A stretch of 64,000 bases of DNA from Longimicrobiales bacterium (GTDB lineage Bacteria > Gemmatimonadota > Gemmatimonadetes > Longimicrobiales > Gaopeijiaceae), in NCBI GenBank assembly GCA_965249725.1, contig OZ252251.1:640001-704000 (forward strand), in the 5' to 3' direction. Shown one piece after another: positions 42,837-61,453 of this stretch (position 1 is its first letter; every line of letters starts with the position of its first letter). The notes under the pieces were generated by a model. That model searched no databases. It saw nothing but the letters and a program-made list of their open reading frames with translations, and was not told the DNA's origin. Both the position numbers and the translations under genes were made by a program.

Positions 42837-42959
42837 CTCGTCCCCACGAAGGCCTTTCCTATAGCGGGGCCAGGACCCGCTTACTACGTTGCTCGTCCGC
42901 CTCAATCGCTCGTATCAGTCGACACCGTACGATTGCCACACATGCGGGAGGAACCGCTC

Positions 42960-44306: not shown

Positions 44307-44357
44307 CGATAGCTGCAGGCCGCGTAACACCGCCGACCCTCTCCACGGAGTTGATGC

Positions 44358-45791
44358 ATGTCTGTTTCAGGTGGCCTCTCAGGTGTTCGCGTAGTCGGAC
44401 GCGGCCTTCGCCTTGCCGTTCACCTTGCGTGTACGCTGGCATGTACGCTGGCATGTGTGATGACAGTGCTCGGGACGCCCCGTGCCTCCGCGCAGGAGTG
44501 GACCGCCCTCGATCGGGGCAGTGAAAACATCGACGTGCTGGGCCACCTGCCGTTGGGCGGCCCGCTCAACGTGGGCGACATGGACGTGGAGCCGGAGGTT
44601 TCCCGCCCCTTCGCGTACGTCGGCCGCATGCGCTACGGCACGCCGGGACCCACGGGCATGGACATCATCAGCATCGAGGACCCGGACCGGCCCACGCTCC
44701 TCTACGAGTGGCGCATCGAGGATCAGGAGCTGCACACGGGACTCGGAGGCATGGACGTGAAGACGTTCAAGCTCGACGGGCGCTACTACGTGGTGCAGTC
44801 CCTTCAGTACGGCCAGGGCGGACCGGACTTCGACCTCGGTGCCGTGGTCTTCGACGTCACGGGTCTCCCCGACGCGTCGACCGTTCGTGAGGTGGCGCGG
44901 ATCCGTGAGCCGCTCCTACCTGGGGGCTTCCACAACATCTTCATCTACAAGCACTCCGACGGTCGGGCGCTCCTGTTCACGACGGTGAACGGCCCATCGG
45001 CGCACATCTACGACCTTGCGCGTGTCGTCGCGGGCGCCAGCGCGGAGGATGCACTAGTGGGTCGTGTGCCGATCCCGGATGCCGGCGGCGAGACCAGTCC
45101 CATCGGCGGCTATCACGACTTTTACGTCGGGTATCATCCCGATACGGACGAGGATCGCTTCTACGGTGGAGGTGCAGGCGGATACTTCATCTACGACGTG
45201 ACTGATCCGGCAGAGCCGGAGCTTCGGATCACGCTTACCGGCATTCGGGGCGTGCCGTTTGGGCACACCTTCACGCCCAGCCCGGACGGTCGCTACGTGA
45301 TCGCCGAGACAGAGTACGAGTTCGCTCCGCTGCGCATCTTCGATCTGCAGCCCGCCCTCGATGGCCAGACGACCAACATCAACCGCCCGATCGCAGGGTG
45401 GACGTCGGATTACCGGTATGTGGCCCACAACCACGAGGTTCGGTGGCCGTTGGTTTTTGTGTCCGGATACCTGGACGGCCTGCAGGTCTTCAACCTGCAG
45501 GACCCGACCGACCCGGTGACGGTGGGCTACTACGACACGTATATCGGGCCGCGAGCCACACTGAATCCAGACGGGGTCATGGGCGACTATGCCACCAGCC
45601 TTTTCAATGGGGCCTTCGGAGTGGATGTGCGGAACGAAGACGGCCTGATCCTGATCAGCGACTTCTCGACCGGCTTCTGGACGCTCCGCATGGACGGCTT
45701 CCAGGGCTGGAACGGAGAGCAGTGGGGCGTGCCGGATATCTCGAGCGAACAGAAATGGGACGAGCCGGTACGGCGGCCCATAAGCGAATAG
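44358..45791 (+). CDS. Secreted LVIVD-like His beta-propeller, array copy 2
   Basis: Same scaffold; extended loop PRATLNPDGVMGDYATSLF; start uncertain. Confidence 0.85.
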   Translation: MSVSGGLSGVRVVGRGLRLAVHLACTLACTLACVMTVLGTPRASAQEWTALDRGSENIDVLGHLPLGGPLNVGDMDVEPEVSRPFAYVGRMRYGTPGPTGMDIISIEDPDRPTLLYEWRIEDQELHTGLGGMDVKTFKLDGRYYVVQSLQYGQGGPDFDLGAVVFDVTGLPDASTVREVARIREPLLPGGFHNIFIYKHSDGRALLFTTVNGPSAHIYDLARVVAGASAEDALVGRVPIPDAGGETSPIGGYHDFYVGYHPDTDEDRFYGGGAGGYFIYDVTDPAEPELRITLTGIRGVPFGHTFTPSPDGRYVIAETEYEFAPLRIFDLQPALDGQTTNINRPIAGWTSDYRYVAHNHEVRWPLVFVSGYLDGLQVFNLQDPTDPVTVGYYDTYIGPRATLNPDGVMGDYATSLFNGAFGVDVRNEDGLILISDFSTGFWTLRMDGFQGWNGEQWGVPDISSEQKWDEPVRRPISE

Positions 45792-45819
45792 AATCTCAAC
45801 CCTAGCGGGAGCAGTAGAT

Positions 45820-47163
45820 ATGTCATCGTTCCGGTCCTGTGTAGTCGGCCTGGCCACGCTCGCCCTGATGGCGATCGTCGTGCCGGGGGCTTCGGCCCAG
45901 TGGACGGCCCTCAAGCGTGGTAGCGACAACATCGAGGTCGTCGCGCACCTCCCCCTCGGAGGTCGCGTCAGCGCAGCGGACACGGACATCGAGCAGGAGC
46001 TTGACAGGCCCTACGCCTACGTGGGGCGGATCTCTAACGGCGGCGGCGGCAAGGGCGTTGACGTCATTGATCTGTCAGACCCAGCGCACCCGGAGGTTCT
46101 CTACGAGTGGCGGATCGAAGATCCGGAGCTGCACCTCGGGTTGGGTGGCATGGACGTGAAGTACTTCAAGGTGGACGGCCGCTACTACGTGGTGCAGTCA
46201 CTCCAGTTCGGCCAGGGTGGTCCCGACTCCGACCTGGCTGCGGTGGTACTCGACGTGACTGATCTGCCCGATCCGTCCACGGTGCGTGAGGTGGCACGGA
46301 TGAGGGAGCCGCTTCTGCCGGGCGGCTTCCACAACATCTTCGTCTACAAGCACTCCGACGGGCGGGTGTTGTTGTTCTCCACGGTCAGCGGGCCCTTCGC
46401 CAACGTGTACGACCTGGGCATGATCGTGCAGGGCGCGGACATGGAGAGCGCGCTGGCGGGCCGGGTGCCCGTGCCGCAGGCCGCCCAAGGTGGCCAAGCG
46501 GGTGGGGGTTACCACGACTTCTACGTGGGCTATCACCCCGACACGGACGAGGATCGCTTCTACGGGGGCGGCACCGGAGGGTATTACGTCTACGACGTCA
46601 CCGACACGGAGGACCCCCAGCTCCGGATCAGCCTCACCGGTGCCCGAGGTGTAGCGCGGGGACACACCTTCACGCCCAGCCCTGACGGGCGATATGTGGT
46701 AGCCGAGACGGAGTATCAGTTCGCGCCGCTCCGTATCTTCGATCTGAAGCCCGCGCTCGACGGTGAGGTGACCAATATCAACCGGCCCATTGCGGGGTGG
46801 ACGGCCGACTTCAACAACCTCTCCCACAATCACGAAGTTCGCTGGCCGTTCGTGATCGTGTCGAGCTACCTGGACGGGATCCAGATCTTCAACCTGCAGG
46901 ACCCCACCAATCCGGTCACGGTGGGCTACTACGACACCTACATCGGGCCGCGCTTCACGGAGGATCTCAACCCGATCCTCAATGGCACGTTCGGCGTGGG
47001 CGTGCGCAACGCGGACGGGCTCATCATCGGGAGCGACTCCAGCACCGGATTCTGGGTCCTACGCATGGACGGCTTCCAGGGGTGGAACGGCGAGCAGTGG
47101 GGCATGCCGGACATCTCGAGCGCGCAGAAATGGGATGAGCCGGTCCGGAGGCCGATCAGCTGA
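45820..47163 (+). CDS. Secreted LVIVD-like His beta-propeller, array copy 3
   Basis: Same scaffold and His motifs. Confidence 0.85.
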   Translation: MSSFRSCVVGLATLALMAIVVPGASAQWTALKRGSDNIEVVAHLPLGGRVSAADTDIEQELDRPYAYVGRISNGGGGKGVDVIDLSDPAHPEVLYEWRIEDPELHLGLGGMDVKYFKVDGRYYVVQSLQFGQGGPDSDLAAVVLDVTDLPDPSTVREVARMREPLLPGGFHNIFVYKHSDGRVLLFSTVSGPFANVYDLGMIVQGADMESALAGRVPVPQAAQGGQAGGGYHDFYVGYHPDTDEDRFYGGGTGGYYVYDVTDTEDPQLRISLTGARGVARGHTFTPSPDGRYVVAETEYQFAPLRIFDLKPALDGEVTNINRPIAGWTADFNNLSHNHEVRWPFVIVSSYLDGIQIFNLQDPTNPVTVGYYDTYIGPRFTEDLNPILNGTFGVGVRNADGLIIGSDSSTGFWVLRMDGFQGWNGEQWGMPDISSAQKWDEPVRRPIS

Positions 47164-47180
47164 CTAACGGAGGATTACCG

Positions 47181-48518
47181 ATGTTGTTCAGAACACGCGC
47201 AGTCGCCGTATTCGCGGCGGCCGCCGCTGTCCTCATGGTCGCGGTCGGGTCCGCGTCGGCTCAGTGGACGCCACTGAAGCGAGGAAGCGACAACATCGAC
47301 GTGCTGGGGCATCTGCCGCTCGGAGGGCTGCACAGCGCCACCGACACCGACATTGAGCAGGAGCTCTCGAGACCCTACGCGTATGTCGGACGGAGCGTCA
47401 TCGGGCGGGGCGAGGGCCGGGGTGTCGATATCATCGACCTCTCCGACCCGGAGCGGCCGGGGCTGCTCTACTCGTGGCGGATAGAGGACGACGACGTCCA
47501 CATCGGGAGCGGCGGCATGGACGTGAAGCACTTCAAGGTCGATGGCCGCTACTACGTGGTGCAGTCACTCCAGTTCAGTCAGGGCGGGCCCGACGCGGAT
47601 ATGGGCGCGGTGGTGCTCGACGTGACAGGGCTGCCGGATCCATCGACCGTTCGCGAGGTAGCCCGGATCCGTGAACCCCTCCTGCCGGGCGGGTTCCACA
47701 ACATCTTCGTCTACCAGCACTCGGATGGGAGAGTGCTCCTTTTCACCACGGTGCGCGGGCCCAGCGCACACGTGTACGACCTTCGGAAGGTGGTGAACGG
47801 AGCCAGCGCGGAAGAGGCCCTTGCCGGGCGCGTGCCGGTTCCCGTGACCGGAGACACGCCGGGTAGTTATCACGACTTCTACGTGGGCTACCATCCCGAC
47901 ACGGATCAGGATCGCTTCTACGGCGGGGGCACGGGCGGCTACTACGTCTATAACGTCACCGACCCCGCTGACCCCGAGCTCGTCATAACGCTCACGGGGG
48001 TCCGAGGCGTTTCGTACGGGCACACGTTCACTCCCAGCCCTGACGGCCGCTACGCGGTGGCCGAGACGGAGTACCAGTTCGCCCCCCTCCGAATCTTCGA
48101 CCTGCAGCCGGCCCTGGACGGAGAGGCCGCCAATATCAACCGCCCGATCGCGGGCTGGACGGCCGACTACCGGAACCTGGTGCACAACCACGAGGTGCGC
48201 TGGCCGCTGGTGTTCGTATCCGGATACTTGGATGGCCTTCAGATCTTCAATCTGCAGGACCCCACGAATCCGGTGACCGTGGGCTACTACGACACCTATA
48301 TCGGGCCGCCGAGCCCGGTGCTGAACCCCGTATTCGGTGGGACCTTCGGCGTGGACGTGAGGAACGCGGACGGGCTCATCATCGTCAACGACTCGGGCAC
48401 GGGCTTCTGGACCTTCCGGATGGAAGGCTTCCAGGGATGGAACGGCGAGCAGTGGGGCATGCCGGACATCTCCAGTGCGCAGAAGTGGGACGAGCCGGTG
48501 CGGAGGCCCATAAGCTAA
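47181..48518 (+). CDS. Secreted LVIVD-like His beta-propeller, array copy 4
   Basis: Same scaffold and His motifs; GGAGG RBS. Confidence 0.85.
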   Translation: MLFRTRAVAVFAAAAAVLMVAVGSASAQWTPLKRGSDNIDVLGHLPLGGLHSATDTDIEQELSRPYAYVGRSVIGRGEGRGVDIIDLSDPERPGLLYSWRIEDDDVHIGSGGMDVKHFKVDGRYYVVQSLQFSQGGPDADMGAVVLDVTGLPDPSTVREVARIREPLLPGGFHNIFVYQHSDGRVLLFTTVRGPSAHVYDLRKVVNGASAEEALAGRVPVPVTGDTPGSYHDFYVGYHPDTDQDRFYGGGTGGYYVYNVTDPADPELVITLTGVRGVSYGHTFTPSPDGRYAVAETEYQFAPLRIFDLQPALDGEAANINRPIAGWTADYRNLVHNHEVRWPLVFVSGYLDGLQIFNLQDPTNPVTVGYYDTYIGPPSPVLNPVFGGTFGVDVRNADGLIIVNDSGTGFWTFRMEGFQGWNGEQWGMPDISSAQKWDEPVRRPIS

Positions 48519-48616
48519 CGTGGCGCGGTTTTTTTTCGTCCCCTAGCTTGTCGAGCACGCAGAATCGATCCGTGCCGGACCGCACGGCGCTCAATCCATA
48601 GCAGGAGCACTCTCCA

Positions 48617-49957
48617 ATGCCACGCCCACGAACCGCCGTTCTCTGTGCCGTCGTTCTGGCGCTTCTCACACTACTGCCGGTCTCCGCGGTCGCCCAGGCG
48701 ACTGCACTGAATCGCGGAAGCGACAACATCGATGTTCTCGGGCACTTGCCGCTGGGCCCCGCCCTGAGCGTGTTGGACATGGATGTGGAGCAGGAGTTGT
48801 CCAGGCCGTATGCCTACGTGGCACGTGGTCGACTCGGGCCGGCTGGGCCGCGCGGGATGGACATCATCAGCATCGAGGATCCTGACCGCCCCGAGCTCCT
48901 GCACGAGTGGCGGATCGAGGATCAGGACCTGCATGTCGGGCCGGGTGGCATGGACGTGAAGTACTTCAAGGTGAACGGCCGTTACTACGTCGTGCAGTCG
49001 GTCCAGTTCGGGCAGGGAGGGCCGAACGCCGATGTCGGTGCCGTGGTTTTGGACGTGACGGGTCTCCCGGATCCGTCCACCGTGCGTGAGGTGGCCCGTA
49101 TCAGTGAGCCCCTCTCGCCTGGTGGCTTCCACAACATCTTCGTCTACAAGCACTCCGATGGTCGTGTGCTGCTTTTCGCGACGATCAACGGCCCGTATGC
49201 CCACATGTACGATCTGGGGATGGTCGTGTCAGGGGCCACTTCCGAGCAGGCGTTGGCCGGCAAGGTGCCCATCGCGAACGACGGCAATACGCCGGTCATC
49301 GTGGGCTACCACGACTTCTACGTCGGGTATCATCCGGACACGGATGAGGACCGCTTCTACGGTGGTGGTGGCGGTGGCTACTACGTCTACGACGTGAGCG
49401 ACCCGTCGTCGCCCGAGCTCCGCATCACGTTGACGGGAATCAGCGGAGTACCGTTCGGTCACACCTTCACCCCGAGCCCCGATGGACGGTATGTCGTTGC
49501 CGAGACGGAGTACGGCTTCGCGCCGCTCAGGTTCTTCGATCTGAAGCCGGCGCTGGACGGCGAGACCATGAACATTCGCCGGCCCATCTCGGGCTGGACA
49601 CCGAACTACAAGAACGTGGTCCACAACCACGAGGTGCGCTGGCCTTGGCTGTTCGTCTCGGGCTATCACGAGGGGCTACAGGTCGTGAACCTGCAGGACC
49701 CCACGGATCCGCAGACCGTGGGCTACTACGACACCTACATCGGACCCCACACCGAAGTGATCAACCCGATCTTCAATGGTGCGTTCGGGATCGACGTGCG
49801 GAACGAGGACGGCCTGATCCTGATCAGTGACATGAGCACCGGGTTCTGGACCTTCCGCATGGATGGATTCCAGGGTTGGAACGGTGAGCAGTGGGGCCAG
49901 CCGGATATCTCCAGTGTGCAGAAATGGGATGAGCCGGTGCGCAGGCCCATCAGCTAG
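48617..49957 (+). CDS. Secreted LVIVD-like His beta-propeller, array copy 5
   Basis: Same scaffold and His motifs; AGGAG RBS. Confidence 0.85.
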   Translation: MPRPRTAVLCAVVLALLTLLPVSAVAQATALNRGSDNIDVLGHLPLGPALSVLDMDVEQELSRPYAYVARGRLGPAGPRGMDIISIEDPDRPELLHEWRIEDQDLHVGPGGMDVKYFKVNGRYYVVQSVQFGQGGPNADVGAVVLDVTGLPDPSTVREVARISEPLSPGGFHNIFVYKHSDGRVLLFATINGPYAHMYDLGMVVSGATSEQALAGKVPIANDGNTPVIVGYHDFYVGYHPDTDEDRFYGGGGGGYYVYDVSDPSSPELRITLTGISGVPFGHTFTPSPDGRYVVAETEYGFAPLRFFDLKPALDGETMNIRRPISGWTPNYKNVVHNHEVRWPWLFVSGYHEGLQVVNLQDPTDPQTVGYYDTYIGPHTEVINPIFNGAFGIDVRNEDGLILISDMSTGFWTFRMDGFQGWNGEQWGQPDISSVQKWDEPVRRPIS

Positions 49958-49994
49958 GAACAGAGTGTTGTCCATTCCAAAAGGAGGACCGTCC

Positions 49995-51329
49995 ATGTCG
50001 AACCGTCATCCACGCTATGCGGCCGCGGTTTCGACCGTATTCGCACTTCTCGTGCTCGTTGCAGCTCCCGTGTCCGGGCAGTGGACCGCCCTCAACCGGG
50101 GGAGCGACAACATGGAGGTGTTGGGACACCTCCCCCTGGGCCCCTTCCTGAACGTGTCGGACATGGACCTGGAGCAAGAGCTGTCTCGTCCCTACGCGTA
50201 TGTCTCCCGCATGGTATGGGGAGAGGGCGGTGCCAAGGGCATGGACATCGTCAGCCTCGAGGACCCTTCGCATCCCGAACTCATCTACGAGTGGCGGATC
50301 GAAGAACAGGATCTACACGTAGGGACCGGCGGCATGGACGTGAAGTACTTCAAGATTGCCGATCGTTACTACGTGGTGCAGTCGTTTCAATTCGGTCAGG
50401 GCGGTCCCGATTCGGACATGGGTGCGGTGGTCTTGGACGTGACGGGTCTCCCGGATCCATCAGCGGTTCGGGAGGTGGCCCGCATCCGAGAGCCGCTCCT
50501 GCCGGGTGGCTTCCACAACATCTTCGTCTATAAGCACTCCGACGGCCGGGTGCTGCTGTTCACGACCGTTTCCGGGCCCTACTCCCACGTCTACGATCTT
50601 GAGCGTGTGGTCGCCGGCGACATGGAAAATGCGCTGGTGGGTCGTGTGCCCGGTCCCGACCGCGAAGGTGGCGGTTCGGCCTATCACGACATCTACGTGG
50701 GCTACCATCCGGACACCGACCAGGACCGGTTCTACGGGGGCGGGACAGGTGGTTACTACATCTATGACGTCACGGACGTCGAGGCCCCCTCACTCGAAAT
50801 CAGTTTGACGGGGATCAGCGGGGTGGGCCGTGGTCACACGTTCACGCCGAGTCCCGACGGGCGCTACGCTGTGGCCGAGGTCGAGTACCAGTTCGCTCCC
50901 CTTCGGATCTTCGATCTACAGCCGGCCTTGGACGGTGAGACCACGAACATCCGTCGCCCCATCGCGGGCTGGACGGCGGACTACCAGAACCTGGTGCACA
51001 ATCACGAGGTTCGGTGGCCTTATGTGTTCGCTTCGTCGTACCTGGACGGACTCACGGTCTTCAACCTCCAGGATCCGTCCAATCCGGTGACGGTCGGCTA
51101 TTACGACACATATCTCGGAAAGCCGGGGCCCCGAAGCACCATTGTGGGTGGGGCGTTCGGCGTGGACATCCGCAATGAGGACGGCCTGATCGTCGTGAGC
51201 GACATGAACACGGGCCTGTGGACCTTCCGCATGGACGGTTTCCAGGGGTGGAGCGGCGACCAGTGGGGCGTGCCGGACATCTCGAGCGCCCAGAAGTGGG
51301 ACGAACCTCTGCGCAGACCGATCAGCTAA
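49995..51329 (+). CDS. Secreted LVIVD-like His beta-propeller, array copy 6
   Basis: Same scaffold; AAGGAGG RBS before ATG 49995. Confidence 0.85.
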   Translation: MSNRHPRYAAAVSTVFALLVLVAAPVSGQWTALNRGSDNMEVLGHLPLGPFLNVSDMDLEQELSRPYAYVSRMVWGEGGAKGMDIVSLEDPSHPELIYEWRIEEQDLHVGTGGMDVKYFKIADRYYVVQSFQFGQGGPDSDMGAVVLDVTGLPDPSAVREVARIREPLLPGGFHNIFVYKHSDGRVLLFTTVSGPYSHVYDLERVVAGDMENALVGRVPGPDREGGGSAYHDIYVGYHPDTDQDRFYGGGTGGYYIYDVTDVEAPSLEISLTGISGVGRGHTFTPSPDGRYAVAEVEYQFAPLRIFDLQPALDGETTNIRRPIAGWTADYQNLVHNHEVRWPYVFASSYLDGLTVFNLQDPSNPVTVGYYDTYLGKPGPRSTIVGGAFGVDIRNEDGLIVVSDMNTGLWTFRMDGFQGWSGDQWGVPDISSAQKWDEPLRRPIS

Positions 51330-51401
51330 CCATCACCCCATAGACATGCCCTCAACCCACTAGACATGCACGAATTCAACCTTCAGCGGGAGAAGCACTC
51401 A

Positions 51402-52739
51402 ATGTCGTTTTCCAGGTCGGCCGTTCTGAGCACGGCCCTCATCTTCGCCCTGATGGCCTGGGCGGCTCCCGCCTCGGCGCAGTGGACAGCCATGAACCGC
51501 GGCAGCGAGAACATCGAGGTGCTGGGGCACCTGCCTCTCGGTGCCCACCTGAACGTGTCCGACATGGATGTCGAGCAGGAGCTGTCTCGCCCGTACGCCT
51601 ATGTGTCCCGCATGGTCTGGGGACCCACGGGCACCAAGGGCATGGACATCGTCAGCATCGAAGACCCAGCCAACCCGGAGCGCATCTACGAATATCGGAT
51701 CGACGATCCGGACCTCCATCTCGGTACGGGGGGCATGGACGTGAAGCACTTCAAAATCGGCGACCGCTACTACGTGTTGCAGTCGTTCCAGTTCGGGCAA
51801 GGTGGTCCGGATTCCGAGCTGGGTGGGGTCGTGCTCGACGTGACGGGTCTCCCGGACGTATCGACCGTGCGTGAGGTAGGCGAGATCCGCGAGCCCCTGA
51901 TGCCCGGCGGCTTCCACAACATTTTCGTCTACAAGCACTCCGACGGTCGCGTCCTACTTTTCACGACCGTTAATGGACCCTACGCCCACATCTACGATCT
52001 GGCCGAGGTCGTGGATGGAGCCGACGCTGAAGACGCACTCGTGGGCCGCGTGCCAGTCGGTGCGGCCGAGGGTACCGGCGGAGGCTACCATGACATATAC
52101 GTTGCGTACCACCCCGACAGCGATCAGGACCGCTTCTACGGTGGCGGGACCGGTGGGTACTTCGTCTACGACGTGTCGGATCCCAGCAGCCCCTCGTTGG
52201 AGATCACCCTGGTGGGGATCCGTGGCATCACATACGGACACACCTTCACGCCGAGCCCCGATGGTCGGTACGCGGTAGCCGAGGTCGAGTATCGGTATGC
52301 GCCTCTGAGGATCTTCGACCTCAAGCCGGCGTTGGACGGTGAAACCACCAACATCAACCGGCCCGTATCGGGTTGGACCGCCGACTACCAGAACCTGGTG
52401 CACAACCACGAGGTGCGGTGGCCTCTCGTGTTCGCTTCGTCGTACCTCGACGGGCTGACCATCTTCAACCTCCAGGATCCGTCGAATCCGCAGACGGTGG
52501 GCTACTACGACACCTACATCGGCAAGCGCACACAGGATCGGTGCCCGGAGTGCAATGGCGCGTTCGGGGTCGACGTCCGGAATGCGGACGGTCTGATCCT
52601 CATCAGCGACATGAGCACGGGGCTTTGGACGTTCAAGATGGAGGGCTTCAACGGCTGGAATGGTGAGCAGTGGGGCATGCCCGACATCTCCAGCGCCCAG
52701 AAGTGGGACGAGCCGGTGCGCAGGCCCATTAGCCAGTAG
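51402..52739 (+). CDS. Secreted LVIVD-like His beta-propeller, array copy 7
   Basis: Same scaffold; CPEC in the last variable loop. Confidence 0.85.
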   Translation: MSFSRSAVLSTALIFALMAWAAPASAQWTAMNRGSENIEVLGHLPLGAHLNVSDMDVEQELSRPYAYVSRMVWGPTGTKGMDIVSIEDPANPERIYEYRIDDPDLHLGTGGMDVKHFKIGDRYYVLQSFQFGQGGPDSELGGVVLDVTGLPDVSTVREVGEIREPLMPGGFHNIFVYKHSDGRVLLFTTVNGPYAHIYDLAEVVDGADAEDALVGRVPVGAAEGTGGGYHDIYVAYHPDSDQDRFYGGGTGGYFVYDVSDPSSPSLEITLVGIRGITYGHTFTPSPDGRYAVAEVEYRYAPLRIFDLKPALDGETTNINRPVSGWTADYQNLVHNHEVRWPLVFASSYLDGLTIFNLQDPSNPQTVGYYDTYIGKRTQDRCPECNGAFGVDVRNADGLILISDMSTGLWTFKMEGFNGWNGEQWGMPDISSAQKWDEPVRRPISQ

Positions 52740-52954
52740 CGCCAGTCAAACGTCGGAACGCGACGGTCACGTTGCTCGGCTCCCCCGGACACGGCACCTG
52801 TGTTGCCCCGGGGGGAGTGCGGGAACCCACCCGTTATACGCAACGGCAGGTAGACTCTGGGTTGATAGGTAACAGGAGGTTACGGGGTGAACGGCGGCCT
52901 AGGGCGCGGCAAACGAACCTGCGACGGACTGATGGAGCTACGCCAAGTCGAGCG

Positions 52955-54409
52955 TTAGAGCCCGTAGATCAGGCGAGCGTTCTCGAGCCCGATGAGCCGA
53001 GCGAGGTCCGGGGGGAGGGCCTGCAGCAAGGCCTCGAACGGCTCCATGTGTGCGTCGATGAGGTCGGGGTTGGCGTAGAAGGTGTCGGAGCCCAGAACGA
53101 AGCGGTCGGGGAAGGCCGTGAAGAGTGCAAGCCACTCCGGTCGCAGCGCACCTCCTTCGTCGAGCGGCGCGTGCTCGGGAAAGAGCGGCACGATGGCGTC
53201 ACTATATATGAGGACCTGGAGGAAGAGGTTGGGGTGAGCCTCGAGCAGGGTGCCAAGCAGCTCCACGGTCATGTCGCCGGTGTTGTCCCAGCCGACATGG
53301 GCCCACACGATGCGCGTCTCCTGATTGTGCGAAAGGAGTCGCTCCAGTGCGTCGACGTTGGCACGTAGGGAGGCCGGGTTCAGGGCGCTGCGCTGCAAGA
53401 AGACTGGGGGTGTAGGCTTCTCGGTCACCACCGCCTCCATGTGAAGGTCGATGGGAACGCCGTACTGCGCGGCCAGGTCCGCCGCGAGAAGGAAGGCGGC
53501 ATGATCGGGCGGCATCTCGAGGAATGGGTGCTCGGGCCGAAAGGAGAGGTGTAGCGCAGTGAGCTCACCTAAGACGACCGAGCCGCTGGTGGAGAGCTGC
53601 GCCGCCGCGGCTACCAAAGCGTCTGAAAGTTCGGACGTGAGGCCGTCTACCTGGCTCTGGTGAAGAAGCGGGTTGAGCGAGAAGCCGCCAGCGGCGAAGG
53701 CGAAGCGGTCAGACCGGCTGGTGATGGCCGCTGATAGCGCGCTTTCGAAGGCGTTGGCTGCTACGGGTGAAGGAGGTGGCATCATCACCGCCTGCACGAC
53801 GTGGTGCACATCTTGGCGAGCGACGGCTCGGTCCAGGCAGGCAGGATCGAAGCAGCTGACCATCTCACCCGGCCCAAAAGTGGGGTGCGTGTGCGTGTCG
53901 ATCCATGTCGCCGCGGGGGCGGGGGCTACCATCGTGGCTACTGCCGTTCCGCTTCGTCCCTCGCTCGAGGCCGTGAGGGTGCTCACGCCAGGTCCGACGG
54001 CTGTGACGAGCCCGCTGGCACTAACGGTCGCGGCACCTTGGCTCGAGCTGGACCAGGTGACCGTTCGACCGGAAAGCACATTCCCGCCTGCGTCCGTCAC
54101 GGTGGCCGTGAATTGCGCCGTTTGACCGATTTCGAGCGTAATCGAACTCGGAGAGACCGCTACCGAGGCGACAGGCACGGGGAGGGTAGGCCCCGGCGCA
54201 GTAGGCTGCTCGGAGCTGCCTCCACCCTCACCACCACCGCAAGCTGTTAGTGCCAGTAAGAGGACCAACCAAGTTAGGAACTTCCGATTCTGGCTTTGCT
54301 TAAGATCCTCAGCCAGATGCACCGTGGCCATGCCACCCTCGCCCAACTCACGCTCGATGGCGTAGCGGCCCTCCAAAGCCGAGTTCAGGCGGTCAACTGG
54401 ATCGGACAT
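52955..54409 (-). CDS. Ig-like (Big_2) plus amidohydrolase lipoprotein with an N-terminal Ser/Thr kinase remnant
   Basis: RYAIERELGEGGMATVHLAEDLK kinase subdomain I; lipobox LTAC; VASVAVSPS...VTWSSS Big_2; IDTHTH, DLHME, WAHVG, LGSD. Confidence 0.78.
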   Translation of the reverse strand: MSDPVDRLNSALEGRYAIERELGEGGMATVHLAEDLKQSQNRKFLTWLVLLLALTACGGGEGGGSSEQPTAPGPTLPVPVASVAVSPSSITLEIGQTAQFTATVTDAGGNVLSGRTVTWSSSSQGAATVSASGLVTAVGPGVSTLTASSEGRSGTAVATMVAPAPAATWIDTHTHPTFGPGEMVSCFDPACLDRAVARQDVHHVVQAVMMPPPSPVAANAFESALSAAITSRSDRFAFAAGGFSLNPLLHQSQVDGLTSELSDALVAAAAQLSTSGSVVLGELTALHLSFRPEHPFLEMPPDHAAFLLAADLAAQYGVPIDLHMEAVVTEKPTPPVFLQRSALNPASLRANVDALERLLSHNQETRIVWAHVGWDNTGDMTVELLGTLLEAHPNLFLQVLIYSDAIVPLFPEHAPLDEGGALRPEWLALFTAFPDRFVLGSDTFYANPDLIDAHMEPFEALLQALPPDLARLIGLENARLIYGL

Positions 54410-54494
54410 GGGCACTCCCCGGACTAGACCGTTGTGAATGTCCGGGTTCGGGGAGCGCAAGCAGAACGACGTTGAAGGCCGACTCAGCAAGGTC

Positions 54495-54628
54495 GCCTAA
54501 CAAGCTGGTTTGCACGAACTCGCATGCGCTCGTTCGCCCTTCGGGTAACGCGCCGCTGGTCACTGCGCTTGCCTTCGCAAGCTCGTGGCCTGTCTCGCGG
54601 CGCGCTCGCGAACCAGACTCCGTTCGCC
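54495..54628 (+). mobile_element. attC-like recombination site (134 bp)
   Basis: R'' GCCTAAC at 54495, R' GTT at 54622, arms CTGGTTTGC/GCGAACCAG and CGCGCCGC/GCGGCGCG, inner hairpins. Confidence 0.65.
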
Positions 54629-54805
54629 GCCCGGGGGAGTGCGGGCACCCACCCCGACGTTCTCCGAATCGTTCCCCCTCGGACCGCTGCCCGGGCCCGC
54701 CCCGTTGGCGGGTTTTTCGACGGCCCCGTAGGTTGTGGGCCACGCTTGTTTCAACAGGACGCGCCGCTCAGCCTGGCGCATCGACTTCAGCGGGAGGCAC
54801 CGCTC

Positions 54806-56155
54806 ATGCTCTACACTCGGCCAACCCTCATAGCGACGGCGTTCGCCCTCGCGGCGTTGATCGCCACGGCCGTGGCTCCCGTTTCGGCCCAGTGGACTCC
54901 GTTGAGCCGCGGGAGTGACAACATCGAGGTGCTCGGGCACCTCCCTGTGGGTCCCGCTCTCAGCGTCTCGGACATGGATGTGGAGCAGGAGCTGTCCCGT
55001 CCCTACGCTTACATGAGCCGCATGGCCTATGGCGGCGAAGGGCCCATGGGCCTCGACATCATCAGCATCGAGGACCCGGGGAATCCGCAGATCCTCTACG
55101 AATGGCGGATCGCCGACCGCGACCTCCACTCGGGTAACGGGGGGATGGACGTGAAGTACTTCAAGGTGAACGGCCGCTATTACGTGGTGCAGTCGACACA
55201 GTTCGGCCAGGGTGGTCCGGACTCGGACATGGGCGCCGTAGTGCTCGACGTCACGGGTCTGCCCGATCCGTCCACCGTGCGTGAGGTCGCCAGGCTCCGT
55301 GAGCCGCTGCTGCCCGGCGGCTTCCACAACATCTTCGTCTACAAGCACTCGGATGGCCGAGTGCTGCTGTTCGCCACCGTCAGTGGGCCGTTCGCCAACG
55401 TGTATGACCTGGGCAAGGTGGTTCAGGGGGCATCCGCCGAGGAGGCGCTCGCCGGACAGGTTCCCAACCCGCAATCTCAGGCCGCCGGCGGCGGACGAGG
55501 GTACCACGACTTCTACGTCGCCTACCATCCGGATACCGATGAGGACCGCTTCTACGGAGGTGGCGGTGGCGGGTACTACATCATCGACGTCTCCGATCTG
55601 TCGGATCCACAGGTCCGCATCACGCTGACGGGCGTCCGCGGAGTGGGCGGGGGCCACACGTTCACCCCGAGCTCCGACGGCCGCTACGTCGTCGCCGAGA
55701 CAGAGTATCAGTTCGCGCCCCTCCGGTTGTTCGACCTCAAGCCTGCTCTCGATGGAGAGGTCACCAACATCAACCGCCCGATCTCGGGCTGGACCGCGGA
55801 CTGGAACAACCTGGTCCACAATCACGAGGTCCGTTGGCCCTACGTGTTCGTGACCGGTTATCTGGACGGACTCCAGGTCTTCAACATGCAGGACCCCGCG
55901 AATCCGCAGACGGTTGCCTATTACGACACGTACATCGGAGTTCGCGATCCCGAGCGTTGCCAGGAGTGCAACGGTGCGTTCGGGGTCGACGTTCGCAACG
56001 CCGACGGACTCATCGTGATCAGCGACATGAGCACTGGCCTGTGGACGTTTCGCATGGACGGCTTCCAAGGTTGGAACGGAGAGCAGTGGGGGATGCCCGA
56101 CATCTCCAGCGCTCAGAAGTGGGATGAGTCGGTACGGCGGCCGATTAGTGATTAG
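54806..56155 (+). CDS. Secreted LVIVD-like His beta-propeller, array copy 8
   Basis: Same scaffold; GGGAGG RBS; CQEC loop. Confidence 0.85.
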   Translation: MLYTRPTLIATAFALAALIATAVAPVSAQWTPLSRGSDNIEVLGHLPVGPALSVSDMDVEQELSRPYAYMSRMAYGGEGPMGLDIISIEDPGNPQILYEWRIADRDLHSGNGGMDVKYFKVNGRYYVVQSTQFGQGGPDSDMGAVVLDVTGLPDPSTVREVARLREPLLPGGFHNIFVYKHSDGRVLLFATVSGPFANVYDLGKVVQGASAEEALAGQVPNPQSQAAGGGRGYHDFYVAYHPDTDEDRFYGGGGGGYYIIDVSDLSDPQVRITLTGVRGVGGGHTFTPSSDGRYVVAETEYQFAPLRLFDLKPALDGEVTNINRPISGWTADWNNLVHNHEVRWPYVFVTGYLDGLQVFNMQDPANPQTVAYYDTYIGVRDPERCQECNGAFGVDVRNADGLIVISDMSTGLWTFRMDGFQGWNGEQWGMPDISSAQKWDESVRRPISD

Positions 56156-56231
56156 CCGAAGCCGCTCCTCTATCGAGCACTCGTCCATAAAGATATATCA
56201 CAGAAGCACTTACAGCAGGAGCACACGGTTC

Positions 56232-57581
56232 ATGTCACACCATCGGTCAAGTACGGTAGCGACGGCTTTTGCCGTCGTAGCTCTCGTCGCACTCGCCGCG
56301 GCGCCGGTCTCTGCGCAGTGGACCGCCATGAAGCGCGGTAGCGACAACATCGAGGTCATCGGCCACCTGCCGCTGGGGCCGGCCTTGAGTGTTTCCGATA
56401 TGGATGTGGAGCAGGAGTTGTCCCGTCCGTATGCCTATGTGTCGCGAATGCTCTACGGTGTCACCGGCCCCAAGGGCATGGACATCATCAGCATCGAAGA
56501 CCCGGCCAACCCCGAGATCATCTACGAGTGGCGGATCGAAGAGCAGGATCTTCATCTGGGCCGAGGCGGCATGGATGCCAAGCACTTCAAGATCGGCAAC
56601 CGCTACTACGTGGTTCAGTCCACGCAGTTCGGCCAGGGCGGCCCCAATTCAGACATGGGCGCCGTGGTCCTTGATGTGACCGGACTGCCGGACCCGGCCA
56701 CGGTCCGAGAGGTCAACCGAATCCGGGAGCCTCTGCGTCCCGGTGGCTTCCACAACATCTTCATCTACAAGCACTCTGATGGCCGAGTACTTCTGTTCGC
56801 GACGGCGGCCGGGCGGGTCGCCTTGATCTACGACCTCGCTCTGGTGGTGGATGGTGCGGACGCCGAAGCGGCCCTCGTCGGGGAGGTTCCGATCCCCAAT
56901 CAACCCGAGGGCCAGGACAACAGGAGTTATCACGACTTCTACGTCGGCTACCATCCGGACACCGATCAGGACCGGTTCTACGGGGGTGCCGGGGGCGGCT
57001 ACTACATCTATGACGTGACGGATCCGGCGAATCCCAACCTCGAAATCACCCTTACGGGGATTCGCGGGGTGGAGTGGGGTCACACATTCACGCCCAGCCC
57101 GGACGGTCGCTACGTGGTGGCCGAGGCCGAGTACCAGTTCGCACCGCTCCGTATCTTCGACCTGAAGCCGGCTCTGGACGGCCAGACGACCAACATCAAC
57201 CGCCCGATCTCAGGCTGGACGGCGGACTACGACAACCTGGTGCACAACCACGAGATCCGGTGGCCCTGGATGTTCGTGACGGGCTATGTGGACGGCCTTC
57301 AGGTCGTAAACCTCCAGGATCCGACGAACCCCGTGACAGTCGGCTACTACGACACGTACCTCGGTGTCAAAGACCCGACCCGGTGCCAGGAGTGTAACGG
57401 GTCCTTCGGAATCGACGTCCGCAACGAAGACGGACTCATCGTCATGAGCGACATGAGCACCGGCCTCTGGACTTTCCGCATGGACGGCTTCCAGGGTTGG
57501 AGCGGTGAGCAGTGGGGTATGCCGGACCTGTCGAGTGCCCAGAAGTGGGACGAGCCGGTGCGGAGGCCGATCAGTCAGTAG
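56232..57581 (+). CDS. Secreted LVIVD-like His beta-propeller, array copy 9
   Basis: Same scaffold; CQEC loop. Confidence 0.85.
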   Translation: MSHHRSSTVATAFAVVALVALAAAPVSAQWTAMKRGSDNIEVIGHLPLGPALSVSDMDVEQELSRPYAYVSRMLYGVTGPKGMDIISIEDPANPEIIYEWRIEEQDLHLGRGGMDAKHFKIGNRYYVVQSTQFGQGGPNSDMGAVVLDVTGLPDPATVREVNRIREPLRPGGFHNIFIYKHSDGRVLLFATAAGRVALIYDLALVVDGADAEAALVGEVPIPNQPEGQDNRSYHDFYVGYHPDTDQDRFYGGAGGGYYIYDVTDPANPNLEITLTGIRGVEWGHTFTPSPDGRYVVAEAEYQFAPLRIFDLKPALDGQTTNINRPISGWTADYDNLVHNHEIRWPWMFVTGYVDGLQVVNLQDPTNPVTVGYYDTYLGVKDPTRCQECNGSFGIDVRNEDGLIVMSDMSTGLWTFRMDGFQGWSGEQWGMPDLSSAQKWDEPVRRPISQ

Positions 57582-57714
57582 GAAACTCAACAAATCATGC
57601 ACGCCGGCTGTCTATATATACTGGCGAGGTTCCTGACGCCTTGGTAGATTACGTGGACGTCGGCGACAGCGCTGATCGTACGTGGCAAATCATCTAAAGT
57701 TGGAGAGATCGCCC

Positions 57715-59064
57715 ATGCAACGCTCCCGGACCGGCATCCTCGCGGCTGCCATCCTTACAGTTCTCGCTACCAGCATGCCCGCTGATGCGTCTGCGCAAGA
57801 GATGAACGCGCTCACGCGTGGCAGTGACAATATCGAGGTGCTAGGGCATCTCCCCCTCGGACCCGCCCTAAACACGTCGGACATGGACGTTGAGCAGGAG
57901 ATGTCCCGTCCTTATGCCTACGTCGGTCGGATGGCATACGGTGGCGTTGGCGTGAAGGGCATGGACATCATCAGCATCGAGGATCCGTCGAATCCGGAGA
58001 TTCTGTACGAGTGGCGCATCGAGGACCAGGATCTCCACCTGGGCCTGGGCGGGATGGACGTGAAGCACTTCAAGTGGAACGACCGCTACTACGTGGTGCA
58101 GTCGCTCCAGTTTGGTCAGGGTGGACCGGACGCGGACCTCGGCGCGGTAGTGCTCGACGTCACAGGTCTTCCCGATCCGTCCACGGTGCGTGAGGTCGCG
58201 CGAATCCATGAGCCGCTGATGCCGGGTGGTTTCCACAACATCTTTATCTATAAGCACTCGAGTGGTCGGGTGCTGCTCTTCACGACCATCGGAGGACCCT
58301 TTGCTCAGATCTATGACCTGGGCACGCTCGTCGAGGGTGGCTCCACTGAGGATGCGCGGGCCGGCCGGGTGCCGAACCCGCAGTCCCAAGAGACCGGCGG
58401 TAACGGCGGGTACCACGACTTCTACGTCGGATACCATCCGGACACCGATGAAGACCGCTTCTACGGCGGCGGGCGCGGTGGTTACTACATCATCGACGTT
58501 ACGGATCTTTCGGATCCGCAGGTTCGCATCACCCTGACGGGCGTCAGCGGAGTGGGCGGTGGTCACACGTTCACGCCGAGCCCCGACGGCCGGTACGTGG
58601 TTGCCGAGACCGAGTACGAGTTCGCTCCGCTCCGGTTCTTCGACCTGCAGCCGGCGCTGGACGGCGAAACGACCAACATTCGTCGGCCCATCTCCGGCTG
58701 GACATCGAACTACAAGAACCTCGTGCACAACCACGAGGTCCGTTGGCCCTGGCTGTTCGTCTCGGGCTACCTGGACGGACTCCAAGTCGTGAACCTCCAG
58801 GATCCGACCAATCCGCAGACCGTGGGGTATTACGACACTTACATCGGTGCGCGCCGCGCGGATCGTACGCCCGTGTTCAACGGCGCGTTCGGGATAGACG
58901 TGAGAAACGCGGATGGGCTAATATTGATCAGTGATATGAGCACGGGGTTCTGGACCTTCCGAATGGACGGCTTCCAGGGCTGGAACGGCGAGCAGTGGGG
59001 AGTCCCCGACATCTCCAGCGCTCAGAAGTGGGATGAGCCCGTGCGTCGTCCAATAAGCGAGTAG
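57715..59064 (+). CDS. Secreted LVIVD-like His beta-propeller, array copy 10
   Basis: Same scaffold and His motifs; GGAGAG RBS. Confidence 0.85.
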   Translation: MQRSRTGILAAAILTVLATSMPADASAQEMNALTRGSDNIEVLGHLPLGPALNTSDMDVEQEMSRPYAYVGRMAYGGVGVKGMDIISIEDPSNPEILYEWRIEDQDLHLGLGGMDVKHFKWNDRYYVVQSLQFGQGGPDADLGAVVLDVTGLPDPSTVREVARIHEPLMPGGFHNIFIYKHSSGRVLLFTTIGGPFAQIYDLGTLVEGGSTEDARAGRVPNPQSQETGGNGGYHDFYVGYHPDTDEDRFYGGGRGGYYIIDVTDLSDPQVRITLTGVSGVGGGHTFTPSPDGRYVVAETEYEFAPLRFFDLQPALDGETTNIRRPISGWTSNYKNLVHNHEVRWPWLFVSGYLDGLQVVNLQDPTNPQTVGYYDTYIGARRADRTPVFNGAFGIDVRNADGLILISDMSTGFWTFRMDGFQGWNGEQWGVPDISSAQKWDEPVRRPISE

Positions 59065-59067
59065 ATC

Positions 59068-59613
59068 ATGAACATCTTTATTCCGATTGCGGTGGCGGTG
59101 CTGGGTGTAGGGCCCAACGGGGCTCAGGCGGCCCCGGCCATGTGTTTCGCCGCCGACAACCAGCCTCCCGTCTTCTATCGGGTGGAGCTCATCACCACGA
59201 AGCGAGTCCCGGGGTCGGGAATGGCGACCGGCGCGGGCGAGATCACGTTCACGCCCTCTCCGTTCGCGGTGAACCTCACGCCTGAGGGTGATTACCTGCG
59301 TGACGTGAACATCACCGTGAACGGTCTCAAGCCGGCTGCGAGCGGCAACTACGTCGCTTGGGTGACGACCCCCGCATTGGACCGCACCACGCGGCTCGGC
59401 GTGCTTGATGCCGACGGAACCGCCAGCGGACAGATCGCCTTCAACAAGTTCCTCCTCGTGATCTCTCTCGAGGAAGACGACGGCTCGTCCTCGGAGCGTT
59501 GGAAGGGACCCATCGCGCTGAGGGGCATGTCCCGGAGTGGGGCAATGCACACCTCTGCGGGGCACGGACCCTTCGTGGTCGAGAACTGCACGGGGTACGG
59601 CTTCAACGGGTAA
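59068..59613 (+). CDS. Secreted hypothetical beta-rich protein with His/Met/Cys tail
   Basis: Signal peptide, two Cys, MHTSAGH; starts 3 nt after copy 10. Confidence 0.7.
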   Translation: MNIFIPIAVAVLGVGPNGAQAAPAMCFAADNQPPVFYRVELITTKRVPGSGMATGAGEITFTPSPFAVNLTPEGDYLRDVNITVNGLKPAASGNYVAWVTTPALDRTTRLGVLDADGTASGQIAFNKFLLVISLEEDDGSSSERWKGPIALRGMSRSGAMHTSAGHGPFVVENCTGYGFNG

Positions 59614-59701
59614 GGAGTCAGCCCGTTCACAACGACATCCCCGTCGGTCTCGGTCATCCGTGGCCGACGGGGATGTTTCGCTTTCAACCGAAGTGATACG
59701 C

Positions 59702-61453
59702 ATGCGCCAGACCAATAGCCGACGGTCCGCTGGGCCGCGGAGATCTTACAGAATCCTAGGGGCCACGGTACTCGGCCTCTCCGTTCTCACCGGCCAGTTA
59801 CAGGCCCAGGAGATGGACCACAGCCAGCACGAGATGGAGATGGGTGACAGCCTGATGTGGACCATGCCTCCTCATCCCGTGTGGATGAACCCGGCCATGA
59901 TGGCGCCGTTCATGGGGATTCTCCCCGACGTCGAGCCGTTCATGCCTGGCTGGGAACTGGACATCATGACGTTGCCGGTCGCGAAGGCGCCCGAGGTGGT
60001 CCAGCTCGCATCAGGGGACACGCTCCGACTCGATGGCGGGATCCTACACGGAATGGTGGGCAGCCGGATGCTCAAGGTGTACGGGTTCAACGGCCAGTTC
60101 CCCGGACCGACGCTCAAGGTGCCCCAGAACGCGTCAATCACGGTGGAATTCACCAACAACATCGACTTCGCGACCACCCTGCGTTGGCACGGGGTGAGGG
60201 TGGAGAACGAGTACGACGGCGTGCCGGGCCAAACGCAGAGGCCGGTCCGCGTCGGGGCGACCTATACCGCGGAAGTCACGTTCCCGGATGCGGGCGCATT
60301 CTGGTATCATCCGCACCAGCGCGGGTACATCGCGCAGGATCTGGGTCTCTACGGTGCGATCCTCGTGGACTCGCCCGATCCCGACTACTACGCGCCCGCC
60401 AACTCCGAAGAGGTGCTAATCCTCGATGACGCCCTCATGACCGCGACGAACTGGGCTCCGTTCGGCCTGGAGGCCCCGACGAATGCTCTCATGGGGCGTT
60501 TCGGCAACGTGCTCCTGGTCAATGGACGTCCCGGCTTCAGGAAGGACGTCAAGAAGGGCGACGTCGTGCGGCTGCACCTGACCGACGCCTCGAACACCAA
60601 GAACTACAATCTCAGGGTCGAGGGTGACGTCCCGATGAAACTCGTTGCCGGAGACTTGAGCCGGTATGAGCACGAGCAGATGGTGTCCAACGTGATCATC
60701 GCTCCCGGGCAGCGGTACACCGTGGACACCAGGTTCGCCGAGTCGGGCGAGTACGCGCTCACCAACCGGATCACGGCCGTCGATCACTGGATGGGAGAGT
60801 ACTTCTATCAGGTGGATACGCTCGGTGTGTTCGTCGTCTCCGATGAGGAGACCGATCAGGACTACGGCGCGCAGTTCGCAGAGCTACGCACCAACGATGA
60901 CGTCGTGGCCGAGTTCGCGGCCGTGCGCGCCCAGGCGGGTCGCCAGGTCGATGAGGAACTCGTGCTGTCGCTCAAGGTCGGCGAGTTGCCGATCCCCGTC
61001 ATCATGATGATGGAGATGGATACTCTCTTCTATCCTCCGGTCGAGTTCAACGATGCCATGCCTATGATGAACTGGCTCTCCACGGGCATCGACGTCATGT
61101 GGCTCATGCACGAGCCCTCGCCCGGAGTGTCGCCTCGGGACCTCGGGCCGGCGGTCGGCTGGCGGTTCAAGCAGGGCGACATCGTCAAGATTAGGGTGTT
61201 CAATTCCCACGACTCGTGGCACCCCATGAGCCATCCGTTGCACCTGCACGGTCAGCGGTTCGCAGTGATCGAGCAGGACGGTGTGCAGACGGACAACCTG
61301 GTGTGGAGGGACACCATCCTGATTCCGGTGGGCACCACCATGGATCTTATGGTGGAGATGTCGAATCCCGGCACGTGGATGTTCAACTGTCAGATTCCGG
61401 AGCACGTGGGATCCGGCATGTCGATGAATTTCACGGTGGATCCGGTCAACTAG
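59702..61453 (+). CDS. Three-domain multicopper oxidase homologue with degenerate trinuclear site
   Basis: FNGQFPGPTL, RWHG, WYHPH, HPLHLHG, WRDT, NPGTWMFNCQIPEHVGSGM; Met/His-rich N-terminus. Confidence 0.9.
   Translation: MRQTNSRRSAGPRRSYRILGATVLGLSVLTGQLQAQEMDHSQHEMEMGDSLMWTMPPHPVWMNPAMMAPFMGILPDVEPFMPGWELDIMTLPVAKAPEVVQLASGDTLRLDGGILHGMVGSRMLKVYGFNGQFPGPTLKVPQNASITVEFTNNIDFATTLRWHGVRVENEYDGVPGQTQRPVRVGATYTAEVTFPDAGAFWYHPHQRGYIAQDLGLYGAILVDSPDPDYYAPANSEEVLILDDALMTATNWAPFGLEAPTNALMGRFGNVLLVNGRPGFRKDVKKGDVVRLHLTDASNTKNYNLRVEGDVPMKLVAGDLSRYEHEQMVSNVIIAPGQRYTVDTRFAESGEYALTNRITAVDHWMGEYFYQVDTLGVFVVSDEETDQDYGAQFAELRTNDDVVAEFAAVRAQAGRQVDEELVLSLKVGELPIPVIMMMEMDTLFYPPVEFNDAMPMMNWLSTGIDVMWLMHEPSPGVSPRDLGPAVGWRFKQGDIVKIRVFNSHDSWHPMSHPLHLHGQRFAVIEQDGVQTDNLVWRDTILIPVGTTMDLMVEMSNPGTWMFNCQIPEHVGSGMSMNFTVDPVN

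Follow-up and report, generated by a model that had tools for sequence, protein, structure and literature searches.

A multicopper oxidase paralogue from Longimicrobiales with an intact type-1 copper site and Arg, Asn and Gln in place of three trinuclear-cluster histidines

In a stretch of 64,000 nucleotides from a Longimicrobiales bacterium (contig OZ252251.1; the whole stretch is called the window below) we studied the gene of a three-domain multicopper oxidase (MCO), P0001, in which arginine, asparagine and glutamine (R/N/Q) stand at three of the eight positions where canonical enzymes carry the histidines of the trinuclear copper cluster, and in which the type-1 (T1) blue copper site is complete. 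The replacements are shared by a whole group of related proteins. Among 121 aligned proteins, 48 have Asn-Cys-Gln and 73 have His-Cys-His around the T1 cysteine, and the full triple is found in 47 of the 48 (Asn and Gln in all 48) versus none of the 73 canonical sisters. The reading that we put first, with divided confidence, is that P0001 would be a T1-retaining periplasmic paralogue of the Gemmatimonadota-type, Met-rich, CueO-like MCOs, whose trinuclear cluster has been rebuilt to a lower-copper, Arg-containing site unlikely to perform the four-electron reduction of O2.

The trinuclear cluster with its eight histidines is regarded as an invariant hallmark of MCOs, and the natural exceptions that we know of have lost nearly all of their ligands. 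In the R/N/Q clade exactly one ligand per cluster copper is replaced, the blue site is kept and the state is held by selection, which makes the clade a natural experiment on the T1 site versus a partial cluster alone, on an arginine substituting for a metal ion and on the repurposing of an oxidase. Such proteins are annotated as 'multicopper oxidase family protein', and metagenome surveys would count them, probably wrongly, as laccases or as oxidases of copper or manganese.

The gene, its copper motifs and the replaced ligands

The features of the gene are the following.

59702..61453, + strand: MCO variant gene P0001, 583 amino acids, three domains (open reading frame and translation, Pfam, AlphaFold2, Foldseek)
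59702..59806, + strand: signal-peptide-like leader, residues 1–35, with two RR pairs, a hydrophobic core and then AQAQE
59807..59971, + strand: Met-rich N-terminal segment, residues 36–90, with 11 Met and 3 His
60182..60190, + strand: motif 1, R161-W162-H163 (RWHG); R161 corresponds to CueO H101 and H163 to CueO H103
60215..60217, + strand: D172, corresponding to CueO D112, the acid beside the type-2 copper; Asp in 47 of 48 variant and 73 of 73 canonical proteins
60308..60319, + strand: motif 2, H203-P-H205-Q206 (WYHPH); both type-3 ligands kept, Q206 clade-specific
60974..61147, + strand: Met-rich insert in domain 3, residues 425–482, with 9 Met and a conserved MPMMNW
61220..61249, + strand: H507-P-M509-S-H511-P-L-H514-L-H516, all kept in 47–48 of 48 variant proteins
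61385..61420, + strand: motif 4, N562-C563-Q564-I-P-E-H568-V-G570-S-G-M573; Asn and Gln replace the type-3 histidines that flank the T1 cysteine

Without interruption the reading frame runs over its full length of 583 codons, from the ATG at 59702 to the stop codon at 61451–61453. A longer alternative frame, started by a GTG at 59537, runs into the upstream gene, and the ATG at 59702 agrees with the N-termini of the closest homologues of P0001. Other members of the variant clade have leaders resembling that of P0001, some of them without RR. The Pfam domains Cu-oxidase_3 (109.3 bits, 1.6e-31), Cu-oxidase (71.0 bits, 1.6e-19) and Cu-oxidase_2 (82.9 bits, 2.3e-23) follow one another in this order, all above their respective cut-offs of 21, 21 and 20.4 bits, and in domain order and T1 ligands P0001 has the marks of the three-domain MCO superfamily at the level of the fold. 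The scores stay below the NCBIfam cut-offs for the CueO equivalog (NF008205, 134.5 versus 525 bits) and for CopA/PcoA (TIGR01480, 111.5 versus 478.95 bits). A HMMER comparison with the PDB sequences returned 160 distinct entries at E ≤ 0.001, with 4f7k as the best match (4e-42) and CueO at about 1e-28. The AlphaFold2 model, built with 17 clade sequences, reached a mean predicted local distance difference test score (pLDDT) of 72 and a predicted template-modelling score of 0.76. In Foldseek it matched the Thermus thermophilus laccase 2xu9 best (E 2e-38), the range including CueO being 2e-38 to 1e-32 and the template-modelling scores against CueO 0.64–0.80 (up to 0.80 on the target).

The copper motifs were read directly from the codons, and RWHG, NCQxxxHxxxxM and the intact WYHPH and HPLHLH described in the first-pass annotation are all present. 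Motif 1 was correctly recognized there and its position needed a slight correction, from about 60181 to an Arg codon (CGT) at 60182–60184, which is followed by W162 (TGG) and H163 (CAC, 60188–60190). Motif 2 contributes H203 (CAT, 60308–60310) and H205 (CAC, 60314–60316), aligned with CueO H141 and H143. Further downstream lie the T1 ligand H511 (61232–61234), the cluster ligands H514 (61241–61243) and H516 (61247–61249), which correspond to CueO H446 and H448, and M509, which corresponds to CueO M441. Motif 4 reads N562 (AAC, 61385–61387), C563 (TGT, 61388–61390) and Q564 (CAG, 61391–61393), followed by H568 (61403–61405) and M573 (61418–61420). When E. coli cueO was aligned with the 121 family members, N562 and Q564 fell on H499 and H501. 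HMMER alignments to solved laccases agree, in that Arg is paired with the first His of HWHG, and Asn and Gln with the two His of HCH. Each of the three replacement codons, CGT, AAC and CAG, is a single base away from a His codon, as had been noted at first sight.

CueO H101 and H446 are taken by us to be the ligands of the type-2 copper. The two type-3 coppers of CueO have as their ligands H143, H448 and H499 in one case and H103, H141 and H501 in the other, according to the available part of PMC6155172, which by elimination also leaves H101 to the type-2 copper. By this assignment each type-3 copper of P0001 is short of one ligand and the type-2 copper of one of its two, in line with the earlier description of the lost positions as one type-2 and two type-3 ligands. 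The T1 set of H511, C563, H568 and M573 (CueO H443, C500, H505 and M510) was likewise rightly described as retained, each residue being kept in 48 of 48 variant proteins. Measured against the eight-histidine pattern of a trinuclear cluster (HxH, HxH, HxxHxH, HCH), five of eight His are present in P0001, and nine of all twelve copper ligands, so that the verdict 'not a normal laccase' holds.

A further change lies two places after the T1 His, where G570 takes the position of CueO D507, beside E506. Gly is found here in 47 of 48 variant proteins. The 73 sisters have an acidic residue in 42 cases, and their five commonest residues at this position are Glu (33), His (23), Asp (9), Gln (4) and Ser (2). 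As far as the accessible text of PMC2944330 goes, the channel acids and the Asp adjoining the type-2 copper are required for O2 reduction. D172, the counterpart of that Asp in P0001, may form a salt bridge with R161.

A clade-wide state, its origin and the selection on it

The 121 proteins are the query and the best 120 of 5175 proteins found at E ≤ 1e-10 among 8000 scored in a word-indexed search. Arg at motif 1 accompanies Asn-Cys-Gln in 47 of 48 proteins, and all 73 others have His at the three positions, an association that greatly exceeds what chance would produce. The remaining five cluster histidines are kept in 47–48 of the 48 clade members, which reach down to about 50% identity. The only protein in the clade with His at 161 is P0016, a single-member metagenome protein, and it carries Arg at another ligand position, 203 (WYRPH). 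In P0043, Gln takes the place of H516. A pattern count over 270 proteins yielded these 48 again and no others, and none of the 149 proteins from an exhaustive search of 50%-identity representatives was of the variant type, 115 being fully canonical and the others fragments or pattern misses. The orthologues, which the first-pass annotation had named as the place to look, therefore share the triple in 47 of 48 cases.

A FastTree phylogeny of 142 full-length rows unites the 48 variants in one clade (SH-like support 99), nested among canonical Gemmatimonadota-type enzymes. In quick IQ-TREE runs (LG+G4, no bootstraps) on alignments in which X had replaced the trait residues, the variants again fell on one side of a single branch, both with 25 variants in 57 rows (Shimodaira–Hasegawa-like approximate likelihood ratio test, SH-aLRT, 99) and with 27 in 66 rows (SH-aLRT 100). 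By these trees and the residue counts, the R/N/Q state has one origin and is fixed across the whole clade.

Arginine at a cluster position is not confined to this clade. A scan of genome contigs gave 588 pattern matches and 583 confirmed stretches, the best 80 of which are the loci L001–L080. One of them, L030, from a metagenome-assembled genome (MAG) labelled Bacteroidetes, encodes at 9860–11692 (+ strand) an MCO that reads RWHG and WYHPQ and has HCH unchanged. The tree places it within a group of 13 canonical rows (SH-aLRT 99), apart from the R/N/Q clade, which implies no fewer than two origins for the replacement of His by Arg as the type-2 ligand. Only one sequence represents the L030 form, with a branch of 0.42 against a median of 0.23, and its gene may be decaying. 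Neither a small protein nor a propeller of the kinds described below was found near it. Exactly one Arg among the ligands is thus seen in three forms, namely R161 in the main clade, R203 together with H161 in P0016, and RWHG with WYHPQ in L030; of the latter two only L030 stands outside the R/N/Q clade.

As DNA, three variant genes were available, that of the window, L012 (66% identity) and L014 (54–57%), the last two from Longimicrobiales MAGs. Ratios of nonsynonymous to synonymous substitution (dN/dS, NG86 method) among the three were 0.18, 0.29 and 0.26, values that are rough since dS, at 1.3–1.5, is near saturation; the general decay that had been considered earlier, with dN/dS near 1, is not seen. 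The three loci write Arg as CGT, CGA and CGC and Gln as CAG, CAA and CAG, and this synonymous variation indicates that the amino acid itself is preserved. All nine remaining ligand residues are kept in 47–48 of 48 proteins, compared with 3–24 of 48 for histidines that vary in both the variant and the canonical clade; H362 and H507 vary in neither of them. Column entropy in the four motif regions is 0.40–0.56 in the variants and 0.42–0.67 in the sisters, with whole-core means of 1.02 and 0.94. These statistics indicate that the surroundings of the rebuilt site are constrained without relaxation, by purifying selection. Fourteen positions discriminate the clade (at least 90% conserved in the variants, at most 10% shared with the sisters), and seven of them, R161, Q206, A211, N562, Q564, P566 and G570, lie in or near the cluster motifs; at the position of A211, 69 of 73 sisters have Gln.

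That the replacements in P0001 are a sequencing or assembly error, or the marks of a decaying pseudogene, would suit the single-base distance of every replacement codon from a His codon, yet we give this practically no credence and consider it ruled out by the open, full-length frame, the same three residues in 47 independent database proteins, the two genome loci with the same residues in other synonymous codons and the low dN/dS.

Readings of the rebuilt site

In the mechanism that we propose, the canonical three-copper cluster would be unable to assemble once the type-2 His is Arg and two type-3 His are Asn and Gln, and the Cys-His electron bridges from the T1 site to the cluster would be gone, which together would make four-electron reduction of O2 unlikely. 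The Arg guanidinium probably fills or compensates the type-2 copper position, and the five conserved His probably form, with Asn and Gln, a copper site of smaller size. The unrelaxed conservation of these five His suggests that the site between the domains still binds something and is not an empty relic beside T1. With less certainty, P0001 may take part in periplasmic copper handling or in an electron relay via T1, without reducing O2 to water, and may cooperate with the upstream 181-residue protein, for which copper delivery is a candidate role, as well as, in this genome, with the amplified His-rich propellers. It retains the T1 site, the Met-rich segments, M509 and the residues on the metal-substrate side. 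Its function could be to pass electrons on from T1 to a partner, to act as a buffer for Cu(I) or to carry out a new two-electron chemistry. A precedent for a copper-handling role other than oxidation is CutO of Rhodobacter, whose catalytically dead C473A variant still gives copper resistance, as reported in the available text of PMC8456105.

The Met-rich segments themselves are no mark of the variant. The Met- and His-rich N-terminus that had been linked to a chaperone or storage role is real, and it is not a feature of the R/N/Q clade in particular: canonical sisters carry a comparable segment, with a mean of 9.1 Met in the 48 variants versus 7.9 in the 73 canonical proteins, and we rejected it as variant-specific. 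Being common to both clades, this richness in Met is no argument for a new chaperone or storage function. The same holds for the distribution of the insert in domain 3, which matches the Met-rich region of CueO in the alignment and which both clades possess (mean 5.8 versus 5.6 Met).

Several points weigh against the reading of a T1-retaining, lower-copper paralogue. The amides of Asn and Gln can ligate copper, so that a three-copper cluster with altered ligands might form; the strict conservation of the five His would fit an active catalytic site equally well; the dN/dS values that speak for selection are rough; and the partners encoded next to the MCO vary within the clade, L014 lacking both the small protein and the propeller and L012 the propeller.

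Some of these points favour a rather unlikely alternative that nevertheless deserves to be taken seriously, namely that P0001 might still be an oxidase, holding two or three coppers through the five His and Asn/Gln with Arg assisting, and passing T1 electrons to O2 more slowly or only as far as H2O2, or to another acceptor such as peroxide or an oxyanion. Constraint on the five cluster His, on D172 and on the whole surroundings of the motifs equals that in canonical enzymes, as expected for a working site, and the single Arg in the ligand set of all three variant forms suggests a positive role for this residue. Against it speak the loss of both His that bridge T1 and the cluster and, in 47 of 48 proteins, the Gly that stands instead of a polar residue two positions beyond the T1 His. 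Moreover, MCOs depleted of their type-2 copper are not known to react with O2. A single change of a type-2 His to Gln suffices to deplete this copper in Fet3p, according to the accessible part of PMC5796215.

More speculative, and in our view improbable, is that R/N/Q would form a new two-copper catalytic centre, with two His and one amide per copper and Arg in place of the type-2 copper. Fed by T1, such a centre might carry out a two-electron chemistry foreign to canonical MCOs, turning O2 into H2O2 or reducing peroxide or an oxyanion, and act as redox partner to the His-rich LVIVD propeller within a hitherto undescribed periplasmic system of three genes. On this account the recurrence of Arg in the main clade, in P0016 and in L030 would be convergent invention and not loss.

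We find it more doubtful still that P0001 is a non-redox pseudoenzyme, a scaffold for binding that would act as a Met-rich copper sponge or as a partner of the propellers, comparable to FtsP/SufI in the divisome. The Met-rich segments are kept, and copper resistance without oxidase activity is on record for CutO C473A (PMC8456105, as far as available). A scaffold alone, however, would not need nine of twelve ligands conserved in 47–48 of 48 proteins; SufI keeps only two of twelve copper-binding residues in the part of PMC2661564 at hand. An identity with FtsP/SufI was rejected on the same ligand count and on the NCBIfam FtsP profile (NF008135), which gives P0001 67.5 bits against a cut-off of 581.

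The neighbouring cassette and known systems

Upstream of P0001, the same strand encodes a small secreted protein and a large array of propellers.

42933..59064, + strand: ten tandem LVIVD/choice-of-anchor-B-like propellers of about 450 amino acids, secreted, 67–79% mutual identity
42933–44306, 44358–45791, 45820–47163, 47181–48518 and 48617–49957, + strand: propellers 1–5
49863–51329, 51366–52739, 54524–56155, 56124–57581 and 57682–59064, + strand: propellers 6–10
59068..59613, + strand: accessory secreted protein of 181 amino acids, beta-sandwich core with the tail M160-H161...H166...E172-x-C174

The small open reading frame begins 4 bases after the last propeller and ends 88 bases before the MCO. 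Its product is homologous to the N-terminal extension of MCOs of more than 700 amino acids of both types (28 matches, E ≤ 1e-3), and the small protein lies beside or is fused to the MCO in 77 of the 80 loci (61 separate, 16 fused). In L012 it is 57% identical and in L014 it is missing. No Pfam or NCBIfam family was assigned to it, RskA_C reaching only E 0.034; the homologues listed are all unnamed or 'hypothetical', and the atlas matches are unnamed Gemmatimonadota clusters. Its model (pLDDT 74) shows an eight-strand beta-sandwich with a disordered tail, for which Foldseek gave weak matches, mostly to Cu,Zn-superoxide dismutase (SOD) and to the SOD-like domain II of its copper chaperone (CCS), with a best E of 3e-3 and none at or below 1e-3; we take these as no more than a lead. 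Of the 82 free-standing homologues, 79 carry the motif M-H-x4-H...E-x-C in their tail. By analogy with CutF, as described in the available text of PMC8456105, we propose the small protein as a candidate copper-delivery factor.

The array is interrupted at 52772–54490 by a small + strand frame and then by a minus-strand gene with Big_2 and amidohydrolase domains (52955–54490). The propeller starts as listed overlap by about 95 bases at 49863–49957 and again at 56124–56155, and the true starts of the overlapping copies probably lie further downstream. Six His are invariant and two nearly invariant among the array propellers. The eight of ten paralogues scanned against TIGR04312 scored 38–47 bits versus a cut-off of 100, and a comparison of the propeller profile with the PDB sequences returned only a haloalkylphosphorus hydrolase repeat (E 2e-4, one blade).

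Propeller homologues (47–75% identity) are encoded on the strand of the MCO in 52 of the 80 loci, 40 of them directly upstream of the small protein and MCO, 9 just downstream and 3 elsewhere. Copies per locus number none in 28 loci, one in 47, two in 3, three in 1 and four in 1, and the tenfold array of the window is an exceptional amplification. A His-rich LVIVD propeller, a beta-sandwich protein of about 180 amino acids and an MCO thus make up a conserved, hitherto uncharacterised cassette in Gemmatimonadota, Rhodothermales and Acidobacteriota. The link between the variant MCO and the propeller array that the first-pass annotation had drawn stands for the family, in so far as propellers do lie beside its members, and not for the variant as such: the MCOs in these 52 loci are canonical, and no propeller was found within 10 kb of the variant MCO in L012 or L014.

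Other genes lie around these loci. Convergent with P0001, an 814-residue protein with FG-GAP repeats and a choice-of-anchor B domain (TIGR04312, 428.9 bits versus 100) is encoded at 61468–63912 (− strand); it is 21–31% identical to the array propellers. The region 26652–38814 of the window encodes a MacB/FtsX permease, an M28 peptidase with a transferrin-receptor-like domain, an alkaline phosphatase, a flavin amine oxidase, a BNR/sortilin-like protein, a molybdopterin oxidoreductase and an RsmB/F methyltransferase; none of these genes has an evident connection with the MCO. A second MCO gene was not found in the window. In L012, a gene of the HupE/UreJ_2 metal-transporter family (12294–13697, − strand) is found downstream of the variant MCO, at a distance of about 630 bases, and a gamma-glutamyltranspeptidase gene upstream of it. 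L075 (3642–7751, − strand) and L077 (3837–6176, − strand) each have, on the opposite strand, a second and much longer canonical MCO (frames of 1370 and 780 amino acids), which indicates that several MCO paralogues per genome occur in the group. A promoter scan of 56000–62000 found no promoter-like site and two minus-strand terminator-like sites, no more than in shuffled sequences, and is uninformative on operon structure.

Among characterised proteins, CueO, the laccase 2xu9 and the metagenomic laccase 4f7k are like P0001 in their three cupredoxin domains, the T1 His/Cys/His/Met set, the Met-rich insert over T1 and a periplasmic location. Where CueO has H101, H499, H501 and D507, P0001 has Arg, Asn, Gln and Gly, and it carries the Met-rich N-terminal segment in addition. 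The canonical sisters from Gemmatimonadota, Rhodothermales and Acidobacteriota (for example P0045–P0121 and L001–L080), of the same length and 48–52% identical, share with the variant the Met-rich segments, the accessory small protein and often the propeller neighbour, and differ in having the eight cluster His in 73 of 73 proteins and a mostly polar residue at the position of G570. A distant analogy, in another fold and with another metal, is provided by the carbonic-anhydrase-related proteins, conserved pseudoenzymes that have Arg, Asn or Gln where His would bind the metal. A description of the R/N/Q variant or of the LVIVD-MCO cassette was not found in open-access and bioRxiv text, subscription journals lying outside the scope of that search.

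Natural MCO-fold proteins without oxidase ligands also include FtsP/SufI and the insect MCO-related proteins, the latter lacking many ligands according to the available part of PMC4203857. FtsP/SufI, with two of twelve ligands, binds no metal in the portion of PMC2661564 at hand, versus nine of twelve ligands including the whole T1 site in P0001. A T1 plus type-2 arrangement like that of copper nitrite reductase (TIGR02376) was rejected at 29 versus 296.3 bits, both neighbours of C563 being other than His. For the small protein the closest parallel is CutF of Rhodobacter capsulatus, which in the accessible text of PMC8456105 is a small protein that is secreted and has a motif presumed to bind copper, encoded directly upstream of the periplasmic MCO CutO and needed for its maturation. 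The 181-residue protein resembles it in size, secretion and gene position, and differs from that description in being a beta-sandwich of about 180 residues that in 16 of 77 loci forms one polypeptide with the MCO.

The nearest counterpart of the replaced type-2 ligand is Fet3p H81Q, described in the available part of PMC5796215 as a type-2-depleted protein with 2.7 Cu that retains its T1 site at a reduced copper count. Fet3p H81Q is engineered and carries Gln, whereas P0001 is natural, has Arg at this position, is altered at two more sites in the His-Cys-His bridge, and belongs to a clade in which the state has been fixed by selection.

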